Under the pieces are notes generated by a model that was given only the letters and a program-made list of their open reading frames with translations, was not told where the DNA came from and made no database searches. This document shows, piece by piece, positions 934 through 7,965 of a DNA stretch of 7,965 nucleotides; positions within the stretch are counted from its first letter, which is position 1, and the number at the start of each line of letters is the position of its first letter. The translations under genes were made by a program, and so were the position numbers. The stretch is from a virus (lineage: Duplodnaviria > Heunggongvirae > Uroviricota > Caudoviricetes), in the IMG/VR virus record IMGVR_UViG_2711768023_000001; one strand, given 5' to 3'.

Positions 934-1116
934 AAATGCCCTGTGCCATCCTCAGCCGAAACCTCCAGCGCCTCCGGCATGGGCAATGATGCCACCGTCG
1001 AACTCTCTCCAGTTGCTGGACGAAACGTTCTCGGTATCCGGGACGGAATCATCAGCGACCAGACAGCATTGAGAATGCTTCAGGAGTACATCAGGATCCA
1101 ATGCCTTGGGGGGTAG
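934..1116 (+). CDS. Rz: i-spanin (Rz-like), C-terminal part only; 5' end in the gap
   Basis: Open frame emerging from the gap and ending at TAG 1114..1116. The C-terminus (...LQEYIRIQCLGG) has a Cys near the end, like lambda Rz (...YINEQCR). Sits immediately downstream of the endolysin and contains a nested +1-frame proline-rich ORF. Confidence 0.6.
   Translation, partial: KCPVPSSAETSSASGMGNDATVELSPVAGRNVLGIRDGIISDQTALRMLQEYIRIQCLGG
935..1072 (+). CDS. Rz1: o-spanin (Rz1-like lipoprotein), nested in the +1 frame of Rz; 5' end (signal peptide) in the gap
   Basis: The +1 frame reads ..ALC-HPQPKPPAPPAWAMMPPSNSLQLLDETFSVSGTESSATRQH, stop TGA 1070..1072. Pro-rich with a PPAPPAW motif like lambda Rz1 (PPPPPAW). 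The Cys at 944..946 is a plausible lipobox Cys. Confidence 0.6.
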   Translation, partial: NALCHPQPKPPAPPAWAMMPPSNSLQLLDETFSVSGTESSATRQH

Positions 1117-1204
1117 CGGTAATTTTACTCATTATCCTTCAAATCAGATTCTGTTGTCAGAGGAATGGGGGAAGCTGGATTCGCAAGAGCTTTTTATGGG
1201 CAGT

Positions 1205-1714
1205 TTAGCTAAAAAAAGGCAACACGAAGCTAAAACTACCAACATAAAGTGCTGACCAGCTAGCAGCTGAAATCAGACTCACTGTATACACTTTCACTGG
1301 ATGAAGTTGCAACATTCCTGCCACCAAAGGAGCAATATAACGCAGCACGGCGATAAAGCGCGAAGTGAAAAGTATTGACACAGAGTTATTTTGCAACTGA
1401 AGGCGAACCCGTTCTATTGTATTGGAACGGCTTGATATTATACATGCAAGTTGAGGGATATGCCCAATTATTATACCAAGATGGTAATTAACGATAGTAC
1501 CGCACCATGCGCCACTCATGACCGTGATTCCAGCTTCCCATGGTGAAAGAGTCGTCTTGCTGACTGTAATTACAGTGGCCATCATAATTGATGCTGGTGG
1601 CAATATCGCCGAAATGAGTAAAGTGGATTTTGTGAACGCTATTATAAAAAGAAGCCCCCATAGGCGATATGGATGAAGTACAAAATAGTTCATCAAAGCA
1701 TTTATCCACTCCAT
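1205..1714 (-). CDS. DedA/YqaA-family-like polytopic inner-membrane protein (moron, function unknown)
   Basis: 510-nt ORF on the complement strand. ATG is the complement of 1712..1714, preceded by an AGGAA Shine-Dalgarno; the track's first codon is a TTG at 1715..1717. Stop TAA is the complement of 1205..1207. The protein is mostly hydrophobic with several predicted transmembrane helices and resembles recalled E. coli YqaA (P..S..PW...T.G...G..N..LG ... LRY). The region is visibly AT-rich relative to flanking phage genes. Confidence 0.7.
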   Translation of the reverse strand: MEWINALMNYFVLHPYRLWGLLFIIAFTKSTLLISAILPPASIMMATVITVSKTTLSPWEAGITVMSGAWCGTIVNYHLGIIIGHIPQLACIISSRSNTIERVRLQLQNNSVSILFTSRFIAVLRYIAPLVAGMLQLHPVKVYTVSLISAASWSALYVGSFSFVLPFFS

Positions 1715-1767
1715 CAATGTCTTTCCTTCTGTGAATTTTTCTTTGCTATTTAACCGTGATACGACTT

Positions 1768-1797
1768 AATTTAGGCTTAAACACCTTACATTTACAA
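1768..1797 (-). promoter_or_regulatory. Putative sigma70-type promoter for the moron gene
   Basis: On the complement strand: TTGTAA (complement of 1792..1797), 18-nt spacer, TAAATT (complement of 1768..1773), about 55 nt upstream of the moron ATG. Weak match by eye, no experimental support. Confidence 0.2.
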
Positions 1798-1911
1798 GGT
1801 ACTCCTGTGGGGGGCCCTGCCACGGAGCGTCGCAGGAGTGAGTGATGAGGAAGAATTAAAGCAACCTATTGTGACAGGCAGCGATAACAGTAAATCACAG
1901 GAAGCATAATC

Positions 1912-2676
1912 ATGGCAAAACCGGACTGGGAGGCCATCGAATCGGCATACCGGGCCGGAGTCCTTAGCCTCCGTGATATAGGCGAGAAATACGGCGTTAC
2001 AGAAGGGGCTATCAGGAAGAGGGCCAAAAAGCTTGGTTGGGCACGCAGTGGCGGTACGCAGGTTTGCAAAAATGGTACGCAAAAAAGGAAAGTGCGTACC
2101 AGCAGAAAGCCTGCCATTACTGGCCTTACACAAAAAAGTACGCAACTAAAAACAGAATCTACACCGGATACGAAACCGATACGCGGAATGCGTACCGATC
2201 CCCCGACTAACCCATTCCAACCCGGTAACCAGCAGGCATTAAAACACGGTGGTTATGCCCGTCGCCTTCTGCTCAAAGATGAGGTGATAGAGGACGCTAA
2301 AGCGTTGACGCTCGAGGACGAATTATTTCGCCTTCGTGCTAACAACCTTGTCGCTGCAGAGAATATTGGTCGGTGGTTGGTGTCGCTGGAAGATGCTAAT
2401 GGGGACCAGGAAAGGAAGATGCTGATTGAAAATATCAGCGCCGCCGAGAAAGCAATGATGCGCAATACAGTTCGTATTGAGTCCATCGTTGGCACGCTTG
2501 CGACGGTAGGAAAAATATTTGCTGATACAGCCTACCGCAAGGCCGCCACTGATAAGGTGTCTCTGGAGGCTGATCGTCTTCGCCGTGATGCAGGTATTGA
2601 TGATGGCAATGGAGAGCGTGACCTCAATGACTTCTACTCTGACATCCAAACCGACGCTGAATCCGGCTTTACGTAG
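1912..2676 (+). CDS. Terminase small subunit (HTH-containing)
   Basis: ATG 1912 with AGGAAG Shine-Dalgarno 8 nt upstream. N-terminal helix-turn-helix-like segment (LSLRDIGEKYGVTEGAIRKRAKKLGW), basic central region, acidic C-terminus. Lies immediately upstream of, and overlaps, the large terminase gene. Stop TAG 2674..2676. Confidence 0.8.
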   Translation: MAKPDWEAIESAYRAGVLSLRDIGEKYGVTEGAIRKRAKKLGWARSGGTQVCKNGTQKRKVRTSRKPAITGLTQKSTQLKTESTPDTKPIRGMRTDPPTNPFQPGNQQALKHGGYARRLLLKDEVIEDAKALTLEDELFRLRANNLVAAENIGRWLVSLEDANGDQERKMLIENISAAEKAMMRNTVRIESIVGTLATVGKIFADTAYRKAATDKVSLEADRLRRDAGIDDGNGERDLNDFYSDIQTDAESGFT

Positions 2677-4030
2677 TTTCTGGACTATGCGGGCACGTAA
2701 CAAAGTGCTTTATGGTGGTCGGTCATCGTCAAAATCATGGGATGCCGCTGGCATTGCCATATTTCTGTCGAATAAATACACCCTGCGTTTTTGTTGTGCC
2801 CGTCAGATCCAGAATAAAATCGAAGAGTCGGTGTATACCCTGCTCAAAATTCAGATAGACAGGTTTGGTCTGCGGCACCGTTTCCGTATTCTGAACAACA
2901 AAATCATTAACCGGGTTACTGGCTCGGAATTTGTTTTTTATGGATTATGGCGCAACATCGAAGAAATTAAGTCACTGGAGGGGATCGATGTGTTGTGGCT
3001 GGAAGAAGCCCACGCACTGACGGAATACCAGTGGAAAATTCTGGAGCCAACGATCCGTAAAGAGGGTTCGGAATGCTGGTTCATATTCAACCCCGGACTT
3101 GTTACTGATTTCGTCTGGCGCAACTTCGTTGTTGATCCGCCCGAAGGCACTCTCATCCGCAAAATTAACTATGACGAAAATCCGTTTCTGTCTGACACCA
3201 TGCTTAAGGTTATCGACGCGGCGCGACGCCGTGATCCGGATGGTTTTAAACATGTGTATGAGGGCGTTCCGGAGTCTGATGATGATGCGGCAATCATCAA
3301 ACTGTCTTGGATAGAAGCCGCAGTGGATGCGCACAAAACGTTAAATTTCGAACCCAGTGGAAGAAAGCGTATTGGCTTTGACGTGGCTGACAGTGGTACA
3401 GATAAGTGCGCTAACGTTTACCGTCACGGATCCGTTGTTTTCTGGGCCGACGAATGGAAGGCCAAAGAAGATGAATTACTGAAGAGCTGCCAGCGTACTT
3501 ATCAGGCGGCGCTGGAGCGTGAAGCAGATATTGTTTACGACTCTATCGGTGTTGGTGCGTCTGCCGGTGCTAAATTCTCTGAAATTAACGCTGACCGGAA
3601 GAGCGAGAACGCATACGCGCGACGTGTGAATTACCAGAGGTTTAACGCCGGTGCTGGTGTGCATGAGCCAGATGACGAGTACAACGGCATCCCCAACAAA
3701 GACTTTTTCGCAAATCTTAAGGCTCAGGCATGGTGGCTGGTGGCTGACCGTTTCAGAAATACGTTTAACGCCATTAACAACGGAGAACAGTATCCTGTGG
3801 ATGAGCTGATCAGCATAGATTCTCGTTGTCCGTTGCTTGAAAAGCTGAAACTGGAACTGACAACACCTCATCGTGATTTCGACCGTAACGGACGTGTGAT
3901 GGTCGAAAGTAAAAAAGACCTCGCAAAACGCGAGATACCGTCACCAAACGTTGCTGATGCATTCATTATGGCCTTCGCGCCAATCGATACATCGCTGGAT
4001 ATCTGGGAACAGCTGGGGAGACAGGCCTGA
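2627..4030 (+). CDS. Terminase large subunit (PBSX/Terminase_6-like ATPase-nuclease)
   Basis: The ORF is open from 2519. The most plausible start is ATG 2627 (MTSTLTSKPTLNPALRSFW...) with GGAG 12 nt upstream, overlapping the TerS 3' end; alternative ATGs are at 2600, 2603 and 2609. P-loop YGGRSSSKSW, Walker-B-like DVLWLEEAH, C-terminal nuclease-domain acidic motifs (IGFDVADSG.., ..VADAFIMAFA). Stop TGA 4028..4030. Confidence 0.9.
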   Translation: MTSTLTSKPTLNPALRSFWTMRARNKVLYGGRSSSKSWDAAGIAIFLSNKYTLRFCCARQIQNKIEESVYTLLKIQIDRFGLRHRFRILNNKIINRVTGSEFVFYGLWRNIEEIKSLEGIDVLWLEEAHALTEYQWKILEPTIRKEGSECWFIFNPGLVTDFVWRNFVVDPPEGTLIRKINYDENPFLSDTMLKVIDAARRRDPDGFKHVYEGVPESDDDAAIIKLSWIEAAVDAHKTLNFEPSGRKRIGFDVADSGTDKCANVYRHGSVVFWADEWKAKEDELLKSCQRTYQAALEREADIVYDSIGVGASAGAKFSEINADRKSENAYARRVNYQRFNAGAGVHEPDDEYNGIPNKDFFANLKAQAWWLVADRFRNTFNAINNGEQYPVDELISIDSRCPLLEKLKLELTTPHRDFDRNGRVMVESKKDLAKREIPSPNVADAFIMAFAPIDTSLDIWEQLGRQA

Positions 4031-5496
4031 TGGCACGAAACAAACAAGCCCTGCGGCGAACTGTGCAGGCCACAGCTGATGGTTATGAGAATTTTATTGC
4101 CCGCGTAGGGATGCAGACACCTAACCAGCACTCAGCATCCACCTACCGGGCTAATTTCACCAGTCGTAACCGCATGCTGGTGGAATGGTCCTATCGTTCA
4201 TCCTAGATCATCGGCGAAGCAGTCGATGCTATCCCGGATGATATGACCCGCAAAGGCATTCGCATCACTTCGGAAATTGATGCAAAAGATCGTGGCATTC
4301 TCGAATCACAACTGGATGAGTTGCAAATCTGGGATGCGCTGAATGACGTGCTGAAATGGTCGCGCCTCTACGGCGGCGCGGTGGGTTTCATCATGATTGA
4401 GGGGTAGGCACCAATGACCCCGCTGCGACCCGAAACCATCGGTAAGGGCAAGTTTAAGGGGATTCTCCCGCTCGACCGCTGGATGGTCGACCCGGCACTG
4501 ACCCGCCGCATTAAAGATATGGGGCCGGACCTGGGTAAACCTGAGTTTTACGATGTGGTGACCACAGCAACGGGAATTCCTGCCTGGCGCATTCATCACA
4601 GTCGCCTGATTCGCTTTGATGGCGTCACGTTGCCATTTCAGCAGAAGATGACCGAGAACGAATGGGGAATGTCGGTTGTAGAGCGTATCTGGGATCGTCT
4701 TACCGCGTTCGACAGCGCTACTGTCGGCGCGGCGCAGCTGGTCTACAAGGCGCATTTGCGTACCTACAGCGTGGAGAAGCTACGCGAGCTTATCGCACTT
4801 GGTGGTCCTGCGTATGAAGCGTTGCTGAAGAATATCGACCTGATTCGACAGTTCCAGAGTAATGAAGGCATGACGCTCATGGACTCGCGGGATAAGTTTG
4901 AAACCCATCAGTACAGCTTCAGTGGTCTGGATGACATCCTTTCGCAGTTTGTAGAACAGATTAGTGGCGCTGTTGGTATCCCACTGGTGCGGTTGTTCGG
5001 ACAGTCCCCGAAAGGATTTTCTACCGGTGATGCAGACCTTGCCAACTATTACGATCGCATCAGTTCGTTGCAGGAGAGGCGTTTACGTCTTCCGGTGCGG
5101 CGGATACTGGACATCATGCATCGTTCGGAACTTGGCAAGCCGCTGCCGGACGATTTCACGTTTGAGTTTAACCCGCTCTGGCAAATGTCTGATGTCGATC
5201 GCTCAACGGTGGCGTTAAACACCACCAACGCAATCAGTACGGCGCTGGGTGATGGTCTGATGACACTGAAAGCCGCTATGACTGATTTGCGAGAAAATTC
5301 TGACGTAACCGGCATCGGGGCATCCATTACCGACGAGGACATCGAGAATGCCGAAGATGAAGCGCCGCCCGGCATCGGCGAACCTGATGACGAACCGCAG
5401 GAGCCGTCAGGCGGAAATCCGGTATCGAACCAGCCTACGCAGGATAGCGAGGGCGGTCGGAGACATCGTAAATGGTCGCTACGATGGTTCAAATGA
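4030..5496 (+). pseudogene. Portal protein gene interrupted by two in-frame amber (TAG) codons
   Basis: ATG 4030 overlaps the TerL stop (TGATG) with GGGGAG 9 nt upstream. A single frame runs 4030..5496 (486 sense codons) except for TAG at 4204..4206 and 4405..4407. The peptides on both sides read as one continuous portal N-terminal region (..YRANFTSRNRMLVEWSYRSS*IIGEAVDAIPDDMTRKG.. and ..RLYGGAVGFIMIEG*APMTPLRPETIGKG..). The longest uninterrupted part is 4414..5496 (360 aa). Acidic C-terminal tail; stop TGA 5494..5496. Confidence 0.8.
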
Positions 5497-6130
5497 CAGT
5501 ATCACGGAAATTATTGCGGCGCTGGAGCGTTACAGTGAAATCATCACCCCCTGGGCGACAAAGGTCGCGGAAAACTTTACTGCGGACCTAACCCGGCAGA
5601 ACGAGAAAGTTTGGCGGCAACACAGCAAGAACATCAGTCGCGAGCTCCGCAATCTTGTGGAAAGCGCTCCTGTGGGCCAGGTGATGCAATCCATCATCGC
5701 CGAACAGGTCAAGTACATCAAATCTCTGCCTCTCGAGGCCGCAGACAGGGTGTACGACATCCAGAACAAAGCGATAGAGGCTGTTGTCACCGGTGGTCGG
5801 GCGGAGCAGTTTGCTAAAGAGATTGCATCTACCGGCGATGTTGCTAAGTCTAGGGCCGATCTGATTGCCCGAACGGAACTGGGAAGAGCAACGGGCGCGC
5901 TGGATATGGCCCGAGCGATAGCTATTGGCTCGGATGGTTATATTTGGCGTACAGCCGATGATGGCGATGTCCGAGATTCCCACGATCACATGAAAGGTAA
6001 ATTCGTCCGCTGGGATTCACCTCCAACTTTGGACGGCATGACCGGCCACGCGGGCGAGCTGCCAAACTGCCGCTGCTATAAAGAGATCGTGTTTGTTCGC
6101 GTTCCATTCGCAATGAAAAGGGCAGCATAA
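5348..6130 (+). CDS. Head morphogenesis protein (phage Mu F-like / SPP1 gp7 family minor head protein)
   Basis: Carries the hallmark C-terminal motif of the Mu-F family (YIWRTADDGDVRDSHDHMKGK....GHAGELPNCRCY). ATG 5348 has a GAGGA Shine-Dalgarno 9 nt upstream; alternative in-frame ATGs at 5357 and 5387. Overlaps the portal 3' end by 149 nt. Stop TAA 6128..6130. Confidence 0.8.
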   Translation: MPKMKRRPASANLMTNRRSRQAEIRYRTSLRRIARAVGDIVNGRYDGSNDSITEIIAALERYSEIITPWATKVAENFTADLTRQNEKVWRQHSKNISRELRNLVESAPVGQVMQSIIAEQVKYIKSLPLEAADRVYDIQNKAIEAVVTGGRAEQFAKEIASTGDVAKSRADLIARTELGRATGALDMARAIAIGSDGYIWRTADDGDVRDSHDHMKGKFVRWDSPPTLDGMTGHAGELPNCRCYKEIVFVRVPFAMKRAA

Positions 6131-6133
6131 CCC

Positions 6134-7354
6134 ATGAAATACTTTTTTGAGACCAGGCTCGGGGAAACCCGATACCGCCTGGCTGACGGCTCGTTGCTGT
6201 GCAAAGACGTGCCGATAGGACGAACAGGTAAGCAGCTCTATGGTGCTGATGACCTGCCAAAACTGAAACCCGATAAGTTCGGTGAAATAGTCGTCACGCG
6301 TTCTCCTGAGCAGGTATTCCATCCGGCCACGCTTGCCTCATTCGAAGGGATGAGCATCACGATCCTGCATCCTGAAGATGAAAACGGGAATGTGCGGCTG
6401 GTAAATCCCGAGAACTGGAAAGAGCTTGCTGTCGGGCACCTCCAGAATGTCCGGCGCGGGACGGGTGAGCAGTCTGATTTGATGCTGGCTGACCTTATCG
6501 TCAAAGACGAAAGCGCCATTCAGCTTATCGAAGATGGCCTGCGCGAAGTGTCGTGCGGCTATGACGCGGAGTACGAGCAGACCGAGCCAGGTAAAGCCGA
6601 GCAGGTCGATATTACCGGAAACCATGTGGCTCTTGTCCCTAAAGGCAGAGCCGGAAATCGTTGTGCAATTGGAGACAGAGACACAATGGCAAATCAAAAG
6701 AAAAACTGGTGGAACCGCATGCGTGCGGCCATCAAGACAGGAGATGCCGACACCATGAACGAACTGGTGGAGTCGGCTCCCGCATCGGTTACAGGAGATG
6801 AGGGGGATTTGCCGCAGGGCGTTAATCTCAACATCAACCTGTCCCCGCAGCAACCACTACCGGACAAAGCACCAGAGATGGGCGGAGATCCAACCGGCGA
6901 CAGTGATGATGACCTCAAAACATTACTGAAAGCCCTGCTGGCTAAGCTGGAAAGAAATGCCACGGGCGATAACGATAATAAGCCTGACGATAATCCGACC
7001 GGTGACGGCGAGGACGATGAAGAGGAAACCACGATTACTGGTGACTCAGCCTGGCGTGCCGAAGTTATCGTTCCGGGTATCGATCTGAGCCGTAAGATGA
7101 AACCGACCGCGTTCAAACGCGAGGTTCTGGCTTCTGCTGACAAAACGCTGGTTCGCCAGATAGTCGGTGATGCGGATATCCGCAAATTACCGAAACAATC
7201 GGTCGACATGGCGTTTAATGCCGTGTCTGAGGTTGCCAAAGGGCGAAACACCCGCGCCACCACCGGCGATGCACAGCGCCTAAACATGGGCATGACCAGT
7301 ATCGCTTCCCTGAACAAACAAAACGCTGAATTCTGGGCAAACCGTAAAGGGTAA
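6134..7354 (+). CDS. Phage head-assembly protein, DUF2213-like N-terminal domain with an acidic TGD-repeat scaffold-like region
   Basis: ATG 6134 sits 3 nt after the upstream stop, with a purine-rich AAAAGGG 11 nt upstream. The N-terminal ~180 aa (MKYFFETRLGETRYRLADGS..HPEDENG..) resembles recalled DUF2213 phage proteins. The middle is acidic low-complexity with repeated TGD motifs; the C-terminus is more basic and helical. Position between the Mu-F gene and downstream structural genes fits a scaffold/protease role. Stop TAA 7352..7354. Confidence 0.7.
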   Translation: MKYFFETRLGETRYRLADGSLLCKDVPIGRTGKQLYGADDLPKLKPDKFGEIVVTRSPEQVFHPATLASFEGMSITILHPEDENGNVRLVNPENWKELAVGHLQNVRRGTGEQSDLMLADLIVKDESAIQLIEDGLREVSCGYDAEYEQTEPGKAEQVDITGNHVALVPKGRAGNRCAIGDRDTMANQKKNWWNRMRAAIKTGDADTMNELVESAPASVTGDEGDLPQGVNLNINLSPQQPLPDKAPEMGGDPTGDSDDDLKTLLKALLAKLERNATGDNDNKPDDNPTGDGEDDEEETTITGDSAWRAEVIVPGIDLSRKMKPTAFKREVLASADKTLVRQIVGDADIRKLPKQSVDMAFNAVSEVAKGRNTRATTGDAQRLNMGMTSIASLNKQNAEFWANRKG

Positions 7355-7357
7355 AAA

Positions 7358-7864
7358 ATGAATAATGTATTTCTGTACCGGATGCCTGTTGGCATTGCCG
7401 GGGCTGTCTCTCGCCCGCAGGACTTAACCGTCGAACCGGTGGTCCTTAAATCCGATAACGCCTTCGCTGCCTATGGCCTGGCTGGTAAATACGATGATGA
7501 CGGTTTTTTCGTGCCGCTGGCAGATGGTGATACCGCAGACAAGGTGAAGGGGATCTACGTGCGCCCTTATCCGACCACGTCGCAGCCGGACATGGTTCGC
7601 CAGGTGGGAACAGGCAAGAACTTCCCGGGCGACGCCATGAAGCGTGGCTACGTGACCGTTAATCTCGGTTCTGATTTTGATGCCAGCACTATCAAAAAAG
7701 GCGATCCGGTATACGTTGTCGTCTCCACTGATGAATCCATCAAAGTGCCGCTGGGTGGATTCATGTCCACGTCAGTCAGTGGCAAAAACGTGGTGCTGAC
7801 CAACGCTGAATTCACAGGTGCCGGTGATGCTGACGGCAATGCAGAAATTTCCTGGAAGATTTAA
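7358..7864 (+). CDS. Hypothetical phage structural protein (possibly a head cement/decoration-type protein)
   Basis: ATG 7358 with AAAGGG Shine-Dalgarno 7-9 nt upstream, tightly packed 3 nt after the preceding gene. 168 aa, Gly/Asp-rich. No motif I can assign confidently; the role is inferred only from position in the head module. Confidence 0.6.
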   Translation: MNNVFLYRMPVGIAGAVSRPQDLTVEPVVLKSDNAFAAYGLAGKYDDDGFFVPLADGDTADKVKGIYVRPYPTTSQPDMVRQVGTGKNFPGDAMKRGYVTVNLGSDFDASTIKKGDPVYVVVSTDESIKVPLGGFMSTSVSGKNVVLTNAEFTGAGDADGNAEISWKI

Positions 7865-7879
7865 GGAACAGACGAATGA

Positions 7880-7965
7880 GGTGATGCTGCCAACTTACTG
7901 ATTTAGTGTATGATGGTGTTTTTGAGGTGCTCCAGTGGCTTCTGTTTCTATCAGCTGTCCCTCCT
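7880..7965 (+). mobile_element. IS1 left end (IRL plus start of insA), partial; the element continues beyond the right edge of the window
   Basis: 7880..7965 matches, from memory, the first ~86 nt of IS1 (GGTGATGCTGCCAACTTACTGATTTAGTGTATGATGGTGTTTTTGAGGTGCTCCAGTGGCTTCTGTTTCTATCAGCTGTCCCTCCT). Recalled sequence, not searched. Confidence 0.85.
7935..7965 (+). CDS. insA: IS1 InsA (transposition repressor), 5' fragment only
   Basis: GTG 7935 followed by GCT TCT GTT TCT ATC AGC TGT CCC TCC (ASVSISCPS), the recalled N-terminus of IS1 InsA. Truncated by the window edge. Confidence 0.6.
   Translation, partial: MASVSISCPS

Follow-up and report, generated by a model that had tools for sequence, protein, structure and literature searches.

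A minimal DedA-family gene carried as a moron between the lysis and packaging genes of a Shigella-type prophage remnant, and its probable relation to the PhoP regulon

The DNA considered here is a 7,965-nucleotide stretch from a virus of the Caudoviricetes (IMG/VR record IMGVR_UViG_2711768023_000001). The whole of this stretch is called the window, and the element in question is an insert of about 0.8 kb in it which carries, on the minus strand, a single gene for a small inner-membrane protein of the DedA family. It is near certain that the insert is a phage moron, that is, a rare piece of extra DNA of foreign composition lying between two genes that are normally adjacent. The ancestry of its gene in the bacterial low-Mg2+/PhoP response is well supported by the chromosomal relatives described below. 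The explanation favoured here, in which we place about even confidence, is that the moron serves lysogenic conversion to the benefit of the host, with a product that would translocate a lipid or lipid carrier and would be tied to the PhoP regulon.

The insert and its single gene

The limits of the insert could be read from relatives that do not have it. Cassette-less relatives, including L002 from E. coli and L003 from the Klebsiella phage ST16-OXA48phi5.2, align to the window until position 1106 (some until about 1160) and resume at 1905, and the insert is hence taken as approximately 1107-1904. A first reading of the window, made from the sequence only, had drawn the segment at 1117-1911, bounds which fit these alignment breaks. 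Rz and terS adjoin each other, directly or almost so, in L002, L003 and most of about 1,870 related junctions, and with Rz (Phage_lysis) to the left of the insert and terS (PHROG 370) to its right, the location between the lysis and packaging modules is as that reading had stated. The lower guanine-cytosine (GC) content that it had described is equally clear: the GC of 1117-1911 is 0.421 against a mean of 0.523, the minimum among 207 other segments of 795 bp is 0.473 (z = -4.2), and the GC at third codon positions of the dedA gene is 0.38 against 0.50-0.60 in the neighbouring genes.

The cassette is also rare. About 1,870 of 5,426 complete genomes of E. coli have the flanks of Rz or terS in common with the window, while the entire query region is found in only four (99.8-99.9% identity) and most of it in two more. 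With the cassette in about 6 of 5,426 genomes, the status of a core gene was rejected, in agreement with the accessory nature proposed at the outset. The gene is absent from every record of the phage collection, none being present in INPHARED, and the 194 bp upstream of it have no match among deposited phages. Neither terminal repeats nor target-site duplications were seen at the cassette borders, and therefore there is no evidence for transposition of the cassette. The features of the insert and its two flanking genes are as follows.

1107..1904, no strand: cassette (moron) between the spanin gene Rz and terS, from alignment breaks in relatives and low GC
1205..1714, minus strand: coding sequence of a 169-aa minimal DedA/VTT-domain inner-membrane protein (open reading frame, Pfam PF09335, RefSeq 'DedA family protein')
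1715..1789, minus strand: native upstream region moved with the gene, part of the stretch 1195-1789 that has 77-82% DNA identity to Citrobacter cassettes
1721..1728, minus strand: Shine-Dalgarno sequence AAGGAAAG, 7-9 nt before the ATG, with GGAG or AGGA kept in homologs
1748..1753, minus strand: -10-like hexamer TTAAAT, with TTAAAT or TCTAAT at the equal place in 36 orthologous upstream regions
1767..1783, minus strand: PhoP-box-like direct repeat TGTTTA-AGCCT-AAATTA (alternatively TGTTTA-N6-AATTAA), from positional homology
934..1116, plus strand: 3' part of Rz (i-spanin), the last gene of the lysis module (Pfam Phage_lysis; 'lysis protein' annotation in L001)
1912..2676, plus strand: terS, small terminase, the first packaging gene (PHROG 370, E = 7.5e-95)

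The one antisense gene expected at 1205..1714 was confirmed as an open reading frame (ORF). It encodes 169 aa from an ATG, or 170 aa from the TTG at 1717 that is the RefSeq start (WP_011069285.1); one Citrobacter homolog reads CTGATG where the window has TTGATG, which makes the ATG the conserved start. The Pfam domain PF09335 (VTT_dom) is matched at 52.4 bits against a gathering threshold of 33.9, covering profile positions 3-121 of 123, and it is present in 21 of 21 database homologs. An AlphaFold2 (AF2) model built from 60 sequences (pLDDT 86.5, pTM 0.82) predicts helix-loop-helix re-entrant hairpins at residues 15-30/41-52 and 111-118/124-134 and transmembrane helices at 58-85 and 139-168, a topology which corresponds to the DedA core minus the extra C-terminal helix of YqjA, YghB and DedA. 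Hairpins and helices are in keeping with the polytopic membrane protein anticipated from the sequence. The family had been given as DedA/YqaA-like, of which only the DedA part stands, by virtue of the Pfam score. In BLASTP against eight E. coli K-12 paralogs, the closest were YabI (24.6% identity, 8e-12), DedA (4e-9) and YqjA (3e-8), and there was no match to YqaA, so the YqaA-type assignment was rejected. None of the four outcomes that the sequence-only reading had named as fatal to itself (no family match, no helices, no GC difference, core status) was found.

Outside its own family the protein has few counterparts. PHROGs gave only a weak match to a family of unknown function, a sequence search of the PDB gave a chance match (E = 0.14), and a Foldseek search of the AF2 model against the PDB returned nothing below E = 3.5, so that the fold is without a counterpart among solved structures. 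Among the viral structures of BFVD, a similar fold was seen only in VTT proteins of giant viruses and in no phage protein.

The DNA similarity to the Citrobacter copies spans 1195-1789, from about 75 bp before the start codon to about 10 bp past the stop. Therefore, the gene travelled with its proximal promoter region (box, gap, TTAAAT and Shine-Dalgarno sequence) and without a distal box or a terminator. About 60-75 bp upstream of the start codon are conserved even with distant homologs. The PhoP-box-like repeat of the window may be read as TGTTTA-AGCCT-AAATTA with a 13-nt gap or as TGTTTA-N6-AATTAA with a 12-nt gap, and it is homologous in position to the xGTTGA-N5-xATT(T/G)A of Citrobacter, Enterobacter, Lelliottia and Huaxiibacter, where the half-site information content in the comparison of ortholog upstream regions is partly imposed by the anchoring pattern. 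The gene had been credited with its own promoter and Shine-Dalgarno sequence. The latter is indeed present, and in place of a sigma-70 promoter, which the scan did not find, there is a conserved region resembling an activator-type promoter with a PhoP-like box.

Some further observations concern the same DNA. An imperfect GC-rich inverted repeat, CTCCTGTGG-N9-CCACGGAG, lies at 1800-1830 on the plus strand, in a part of the insert (1790-1904) that is common neither to the Citrobacter cassettes nor to the cassette-less phages. The window has no Rfam match at the gathering threshold; in E-value mode the sole match, to a snoRNA, is due to chance. A terminator-like match at 1409-1430 on the plus strand was discounted, as it falls inside the coding sequence and such matches occur at chance frequency.

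The minimal DedA clade and its chromosomal relatives

A profile search of 1.84e9 cluster representatives returned no more than 12 at E<=1e-30, beyond which the scores fall off steeply. The members of this small clade are 167-180 aa long. Shigella and E. coli carry copies of 100% identity, Citrobacter and Kosakonia of 57-78%, Enterobacter, Lelliottia and Huaxiibacter of about 42-53%, and Morganella, Proteus and Arsenophonus of 34-44%. On alignment to YqjA, E39 corresponds to K29, D51 to A41, R130 to R119 and R136 to R125, and the PG motif is replaced by PP. At K29-S30-T31, L38-P-P-A-S42, R119 and R125, the same residues are present in 73-74 of the 74 clade members. The hairpin-2 arginine pair R119/R125, equivalent to R130 and R136 of YghB and YqjA, is found in all 74, and K29 and A41, which occupy the positions of the acidic residues of COG0586, are invariant in 73. 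In the nearest outgroup both arginines are likewise kept and the position of K29 is held by Glu in 125 of 128 representatives.

The DedA proteins have been divided into three subfamilies, COG0586, COG0398 and COG1238; COG0398 has no acidic tip and misses one or both of the arginines, and COG1238 (YqaA) has no arginines (PMC10127716, Todor et al.). Since R119 and R125 are retained and K29 replaces Glu, the clade is part of COG0586 by descent and by its arginine pair, and fails the acidic-tip criterion. The residues concerned are of known importance. E39 and D51 of YqjA are functionally essential. According to a model of UptA, the corresponding Glu forms a hydrogen bond with the second Arg, and the arginines help to bind C55-P (PMC11474028). 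The counterparts of this Glu and of the arginines in YqjA are at the centre of a dimer interface formed by the hairpins (bioRxiv 10.64898/2026.09.20.752871). The reversal from Glu to Lys at the tip of hairpin 1 should alter the coupling or the handling of the substrate.

Many proteins of the nearest outgroup are fusions of VTT with PAP2 and, in part, LssY_C, and VTT-PAP2(-LssY_C) fusions have been assigned to COG0586 (PMC10127716). For example, P0040, P0042, P0043, P0048 and about 67 more representatives exceed 600 aa and join a VTT/DedA domain at the N-terminus to a PAP2 lipid phosphatase and LssY_C. Such a combination suits the coupled dephosphorylation and flipping of undecaprenyl pyrophosphate.

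The orthologs in Enterobacter, Morganella and Arsenophonus have a GC content that matches their surroundings, whereas the Shigella/E. coli copy is 8.5 points below its flanks. Their neighbours are often magnesium transporters. The short dedA gene is divergent from a gene for an MgtE-type Mg2+ channel in Enterobacter, Lelliottia and Huaxiibacter, in tandem with mgtE in several Arsenophonus genomes, and convergent with corA in Morganella. The leader of mgtE contains an M-box Mg2+ riboswitch (RF00380), which scores 103-115 bits against a gathering threshold of 44. On the minus strand it lies at 7672-7841 in L038, 7673-7842 in L030 and 7660-7829 in L061, and on the plus strand at 8792-8961 in L062, 8793-8962 in L064 and 8988-9157 in L066. 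The CBS-MgtE gene that it precedes is itself short (about 333 aa) and adjoins the short dedA in Enterobacter, Lelliottia, Huaxiibacter and Arsenophonus.

PhoP-activated promoters are known by the directly oriented box (T/G)GTTTA-N5-(T/G)GTTTA and a distance of about 12 nt from it to the -10 hexamer (PMC5775216, PMC3335776), a geometry that belongs to promoter architectures I and II (PMC3335776). The 12-nt spacing was confirmed on the real mgtA and phoP promoters of E. coli. In the Enterobacter group, two boxes precede dedA. The distal one, at about -104, is perfect (12/12) and reads TGTTTA-AGAAC-GGTTTA; the proximal one, (T/C)GTTGA-N5-TATTTA, matches at 9-10 of 12 positions and lies exactly 12 nt 5' of a TTAAAT/TCTAAT hexamer. 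Similarly, dedA of Citrobacter has a 9-10/12 box at 12 nt from its -10. Boxes of similar degeneracy occur among 23 PhoP-activated promoters, for example GGTTGA-N5-TATTTA in ugtL and TATTGA-N5-CATTGA in orgB (PMC3335776). The intergenic region common to mgtE and dedA thus has both a riboswitch and a perfect PhoP box, and so mgtE in Enterobacter, Lelliottia and Huaxiibacter may be under the dual control of PhoP and the riboswitch.

Expression data point in the same direction. In E. hormaechei 4236 with a colistin-selected deletion of mgrB, in which PhoPQ is derepressed because of this deletion, the 'DedA family protein' N5F16_08430, here taken as an ortholog by synteny and not by sequence, was up 23.1-fold (PMC10434160 supplement), and mgtE (N5F16_08425) was up 19.6-fold (PMC10434160). 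Co-induced with them were arnBCADT (35-56x), pagP (27x), virK/ybjX (45x), mgtA and slyB (PMC10434160). N5F16_08430 lies between the MgtE gene N5F16_08425 and an SDR gene, which is the synteny of the examined E. hormaechei loci. Furthermore, Arsenophonus genomes of only 0.85-0.93 Mb still carry the short dedA between rpoD and mutS, and this retention suggests an indispensable function. In L083 and L088-L091 (Arsenophonus, 0.87-0.94 Mb), the gene, at about 8001, is directly 3' of dnaG-rpoD and 5' of mutS.

A decayed prophage, an intact gene and its other contexts

The window copy lies in a dead prophage remnant of the Shigella type that is bounded by insertion sequences (IS). The window is a fragment of a lambdoid-type prophage with lysis, packaging and head genes up to 7864. 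An apparently intact relative, the prophage next to ybhA in E. coli FDAARGOS_944, is 99.9% identical and gapless, with 8 differences in 6,946 bp; the sole difference inside the dedA gene, at position 1433, is synonymous. The portal gene is a pseudogene, in which two of the eight differences from the intact E. coli copy are in-frame nonsense mutations, at 4205 (TGG>TAG) and 4405 (CAG>TAG). Bases 7880-7965 are the end of an IS1, an element of which E. coli genomes have a median of 10 copies. At the other border, bases 1-86 correspond to the end of another multicopy element. This element interrupts terL of S. flexneri SFBU1023 as an insertion of 1,331 bp with a duplication of 5 bp, which fits IS2. 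That the prophage is being dismantled, as had been supposed, is borne out by the two portal nonsense mutations and by the IS-type ends at both window borders. The remaining features of the fragment are listed here.

109-482: SAR-type lysozyme
483-933: run of N (masked)
2627-4030: terL, PBSX-family
4030-5496: portal, DUF1073

The IMG/VR contig L098 is 100% identical to window positions 1016-7965, and the portal is likewise split in three ORFs in the viral contigs L097, L098 and L104. The run of N comprises 451 bases, and in L001, the E. coli prophage of 99.9% identity, these flanking positions are 408 bp apart; the mismatch reflects either a hidden length difference of 43 bp or a mask whose length is not faithful.

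In spite of this decay of the phage, the dedA gene has been kept. All 20 loci that have the E. coli/Shigella cassette contain the ORF at full length, and in these same loci the genes for holin, lysozyme, Rz, terS, terL, portal and head proteins are damaged in at least six patterns of IS insertion, deletion and nonsense mutation. The exact protein sequence is found on at least 1000 contigs, mostly of S. flexneri, and it keeps all the residues that are invariant in the clade. Pairwise dN/dS values among the window, Citrobacter prophage and chromosomal copies are 0.08-0.25 (0.24 against the Citrobacter prophage copy), by which measure the gene is under purifying selection. Within the Shigella/E. 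coli lineage itself selection cannot be gauged, as all copies there are 99-100% identical. An intact ORF amid phage decay fits selective retention and is suggestive of it. The earlier hint of retention under selection thus gains from the intact ORFs and the dN/dS values, and is weakened by the manner in which the loci were found, to which we return below.

The gene is found in several other mobile contexts. In C. youngae a copy of 78% identity sits in an unrelated lambda-like prophage (GpA terminase, Portal_2), again antisense, 3' of the holin, the endolysin and an 89-aa ORF of the lysis region and 5' of the terminase genes. Judging from these arrangements, capture of the gene at the same lysis/terminase position in an unrelated prophage is a repeated and independent event. 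Other Citrobacter copies adjoin a phage-type dinI. E. coli RMDEC465 has the same lysis module and cassette joined to a different packaging module, in the VL7S7 locus IS911 lies 50 bp upstream of the dedA gene and the head genes are lost, and in L107 only the cassette (1116-1923) is left between IS elements.

Further details of these and other loci may be added. In RMDEC465 (L021, 9727-10266), terL has behind it a gene annotated as 'anti-CBASS protein Acb1 family protein', and after this gene comes IS4. The cassette of L107 (6427-10461) is flanked by an IS3-family element and an IS110-like insertion, and its protein has the variant V49I. Of the draft S. flexneri contigs with the gene, many extend over no more than about 1.7-1.9 kb, in line with IS copies on either side of it. 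On the viral contig L110 (4179-10195), a 73%-identical copy lies beside genes for a 671-aa Mu-like transposase and an SRAP (YedK-like) peptidase, and this may be a third kind of mobile context. L004 (C. freundii pRHBSTW-00902_4, 82 kb), typed as a non-mobilizable plasmid, has icd, rluE, mnmA, hflD, purB and phoPQ in chromosomal order adjoining dinI and the DedA homolog, and looks like chromosomal DNA and not a plasmid.

Possible functions and relation to known systems

The favoured explanation may be laid out as follows. A temperate phage whose regulation and lysis genes are lambdoid and whose terminase is of the PBSX type would have picked up a piece of about 0.6-0.8 kb from an enterobacterial chromosome, consisting of one gene and about 75 bp of its own promoter, in antisense orientation between Rz and terS. 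In the lysogen, the prophage would then express the protein without need of phage late transcription. R119 and R125 correspond to the pair with which the characterised COG0586 flippases bind the phosphate head group of undecaprenyl phosphate (UndP), K29 is at the place of the acidic residue to which the coupling of transport to the proton motive force (PMF) is attributed, and the C-terminal helix is missing. The protein might thus translocate a phosphate-headed lipid across the inner membrane, most likely the UndP carrier and possibly a phospholipid. Such translocation would support the envelope remodelling driven by PhoPQ (L-Ara4N lipid A, O-antigen, peptidoglycan) under Mg2+ limitation and attack by cationic peptides. 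As proposed, the gene would stay intact while the phage decays because it benefits the host. We infer the substrate, the direction of transport, the expression in lysogens, the PhoP control of the window copy and the fitness benefit. Likewise, the PhoP-type origin of the window promoter is deduced from phylogeny and not from the box of this copy itself.

A more specific proposal, which is held only tentatively, is that the DedA proteins with a Lys tip form a distinct class, namely PMF-independent (equilibrative) translocators of UndP or anionic lipids in which Lys would replace the Glu-bound proton or cation. This class would be wired to low Mg2+ through PhoP boxes and the M-box mgtE, and would be spread by phages as a conversion gene that raises tolerance to cationic peptides and polymyxin and the intracellular fitness of S. 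flexneri.

Several results weigh against the favoured explanation. The acidic tip of hairpin 1, the hallmark of the COG0586 UndP flippases, is not present in the clade, and the NCBIfam equivalogs score far below their cutoffs, with 31 bits against 236 for PRK10847 (YqjA/YghB type) and 19.9 and 16.3 bits against 250 and 300 for UptA; the substrate or the mechanism of the clade may therefore differ. The box of the window copy scores 9/12, which is at chance level, 41% of shuffles reaching this score, and either its second half-site is degenerate or its spacing is N6. The distal 12/12 PhoP box has not been carried over into the cassette. A scan for the sigma-70 consensus on the minus strand of 1718-1911 found no promoter, and a terminator scan (1000-2000) found none for the gene 3' of its stop codon on the minus strand. 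In a PhoPQ study of S. flexneri 301, the window gene was not among the 38 predicted boxes (PMC5775216), and the induced gene of E. hormaechei, as said, was matched by its position. Lastly, the 20 cassette loci were found via the gene itself, which is an ascertainment bias, and since the gene is in addition a small target (510 bp), the argument from retention is suggestive and no stronger.

These points leave room for rival explanations, of which that of an accessory to Mg2+ homeostasis is unlikely and yet the most serious. The protein would work with or regulate MgtE or CorA, or would affect cation flux or membrane potential, and the phage copy would aid growth at low Mg2+. The linkage to an M-box mgtE is kept in two gene orders and two bacterial families, corA adjoins the gene in Morganella, and the ortholog and mgtE are co-induced (23.1x and 19.6x). 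DedA proteins have moreover been tied to Mg2+/Ca2+ homeostasis, for example YqjA/YghB of K. pneumoniae (PMC10846249) and XdfA of Xanthomonas. However, the copies of E. coli/Shigella, Citrobacter and Kosakonia have no mgtE neighbour, the Arg pair and the PAP2-fusion relatives indicate a phosphate-headed lipid as substrate, and the cation phenotypes of DedA mutants are read in the cited paper as secondary to membrane hyperpolarisation. A neutral hitch-hiker, with no current function in Shigella/E. coli and persisting as it is small and recent, is less probable again. The near-identity of the copies, the 510-bp target, the degraded PhoP-like box and the ascertainment bias are in its favour, but all clade-invariant residues are kept and dN/dS is 0.24 against the Citrobacter prophage copy. 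Furthermore, all 20 loci have an intact ORF, even L107, whose two flanks have given way to IS elements, and VL7S7, where IS911 lies at a distance of 50 bp, and to this are added the occurrence of the exact sequence on at least 1000 contigs and the independent capture at the same position in an unrelated prophage.

An anti-phage function, be it superinfection exclusion or membrane-acting abortive infection, is improbable. It is suggested by the inner-membrane location, as many prophage membrane morons act in exclusion, and by the position of the cassette, which is that of lambda bor and a hotspot for cargo. Against it, the PADLOC defence models gave no family match at E<=1, the gene stands single without a partner and is absent from the phages of INPHARED, and the clade is mainly chromosomal, matched to the GC of its hosts, kept in endosymbionts of 0.85-0.93 Mb and co-regulated with Mg2+/PhoP genes. 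Of the functions that the sequence-only reading had offered, envelope-stress tolerance fits, while neither defence nor exclusion has any support, given the PADLOC result and orthologs that are housekeeping or regulon genes. The least probable explanation, to which we give very little credence, is a modulator of the host DedA proteins, which would form heterodimers with YqjA, YghB or DedA via the hairpin interface and act as a dominant negative or an activator. The C-terminal helix implicated in oligomerisation is missing, and the Lys could conceivably pair with the Glu of a partner; still, the retention in reduced Arsenophonus genomes suggests a protein that acts alone, and the identity to host paralogs is only about 24%.

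A host-benefiting lipid translocator with PhoP ties would be of some consequence, as a part played by DedA proteins in polymyxin resistance and in lipid-carrier recycling is now emerging. If it is true, envelope-resistance traits would have a new route of spread in a phage-mobilised and regulon-wired DedA that is close to fixation in a major pathogen. The clade would then be a natural experiment on the DedA mechanism, with 169 aa, the substrate arginines kept and the charge of the coupling residue reversed, and the conserved module of M-box mgtE, PhoP box and short dedA would be a testable link from Mg2+ sensing to the transport of lipids or lipid carriers. If the reading is wrong, the cassette is still a clean and well-delimited moron captured with its native promoter. 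There is precedent for morons at this hotspot, for DedA proteins and for PhoP-activated genes of horizontal origin. In the open-access literature no description was found of a phage-borne DedA gene, of the minimal clade with the Lys tip or of its linkage to the M-box mgtE and PhoP boxes, and no paper on WP_011069285 or one that pairs DedA with moron, exclusion or conversion.

Among the known systems, COG0586 (YqjA, YghB, DedA and YabI of E. coli, UptA of B. subtilis and PA4029 of P. aeruginosa), the putative PMF-driven flippases of UndP, is the nearest. The window protein shares with it the VTT domain, the two re-entrant hairpins, both hairpin-2 arginines in RFxxxxR(x)xxPxxAG and the link to PhoP, arn and polymyxin. 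It differs in having only 23-25% identity, Lys/Ala for the acidic residues, PP for PG, and 169 aa without the C-terminal transmembrane helix against about 220 aa. YqaA of COG1238 is similarly small (142 aa), but it is without the arginines and has no BLAST match. COG0398 (YdjX/YdjZ, TMEM41B/VMP1-like) likewise has no acidic tip, but one or both arginines are missing, whereas the window clade keeps both. The 'SNARE-associated Golgi protein' (VTT) of giant viruses is similar in fold in BFVD (probability 0.85-0.93, TM-score up to 0.63), and differs in coming from lineages of eukaryotic viruses, with 238-326 aa, 7-17% identity and unrelated contexts.

As a moron, the cassette resembles bor and lom of lambda and the PhoP-activated prophage cargo of Salmonella, being a single gene of foreign composition in a late-region hotspot, opposite to the late operon and of likely benefit to the host. 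PhoP promoters of architectures I and II have been associated with horizontally acquired genes (PMC3335776). Unlike these examples, its product is an inner-membrane DedA protein and not an outer-membrane or secreted virulence factor, and no terminator was detected. Its PhoP control is putative, and its promoter would have been imported together with the gene from a chromosomal member of the regulon.

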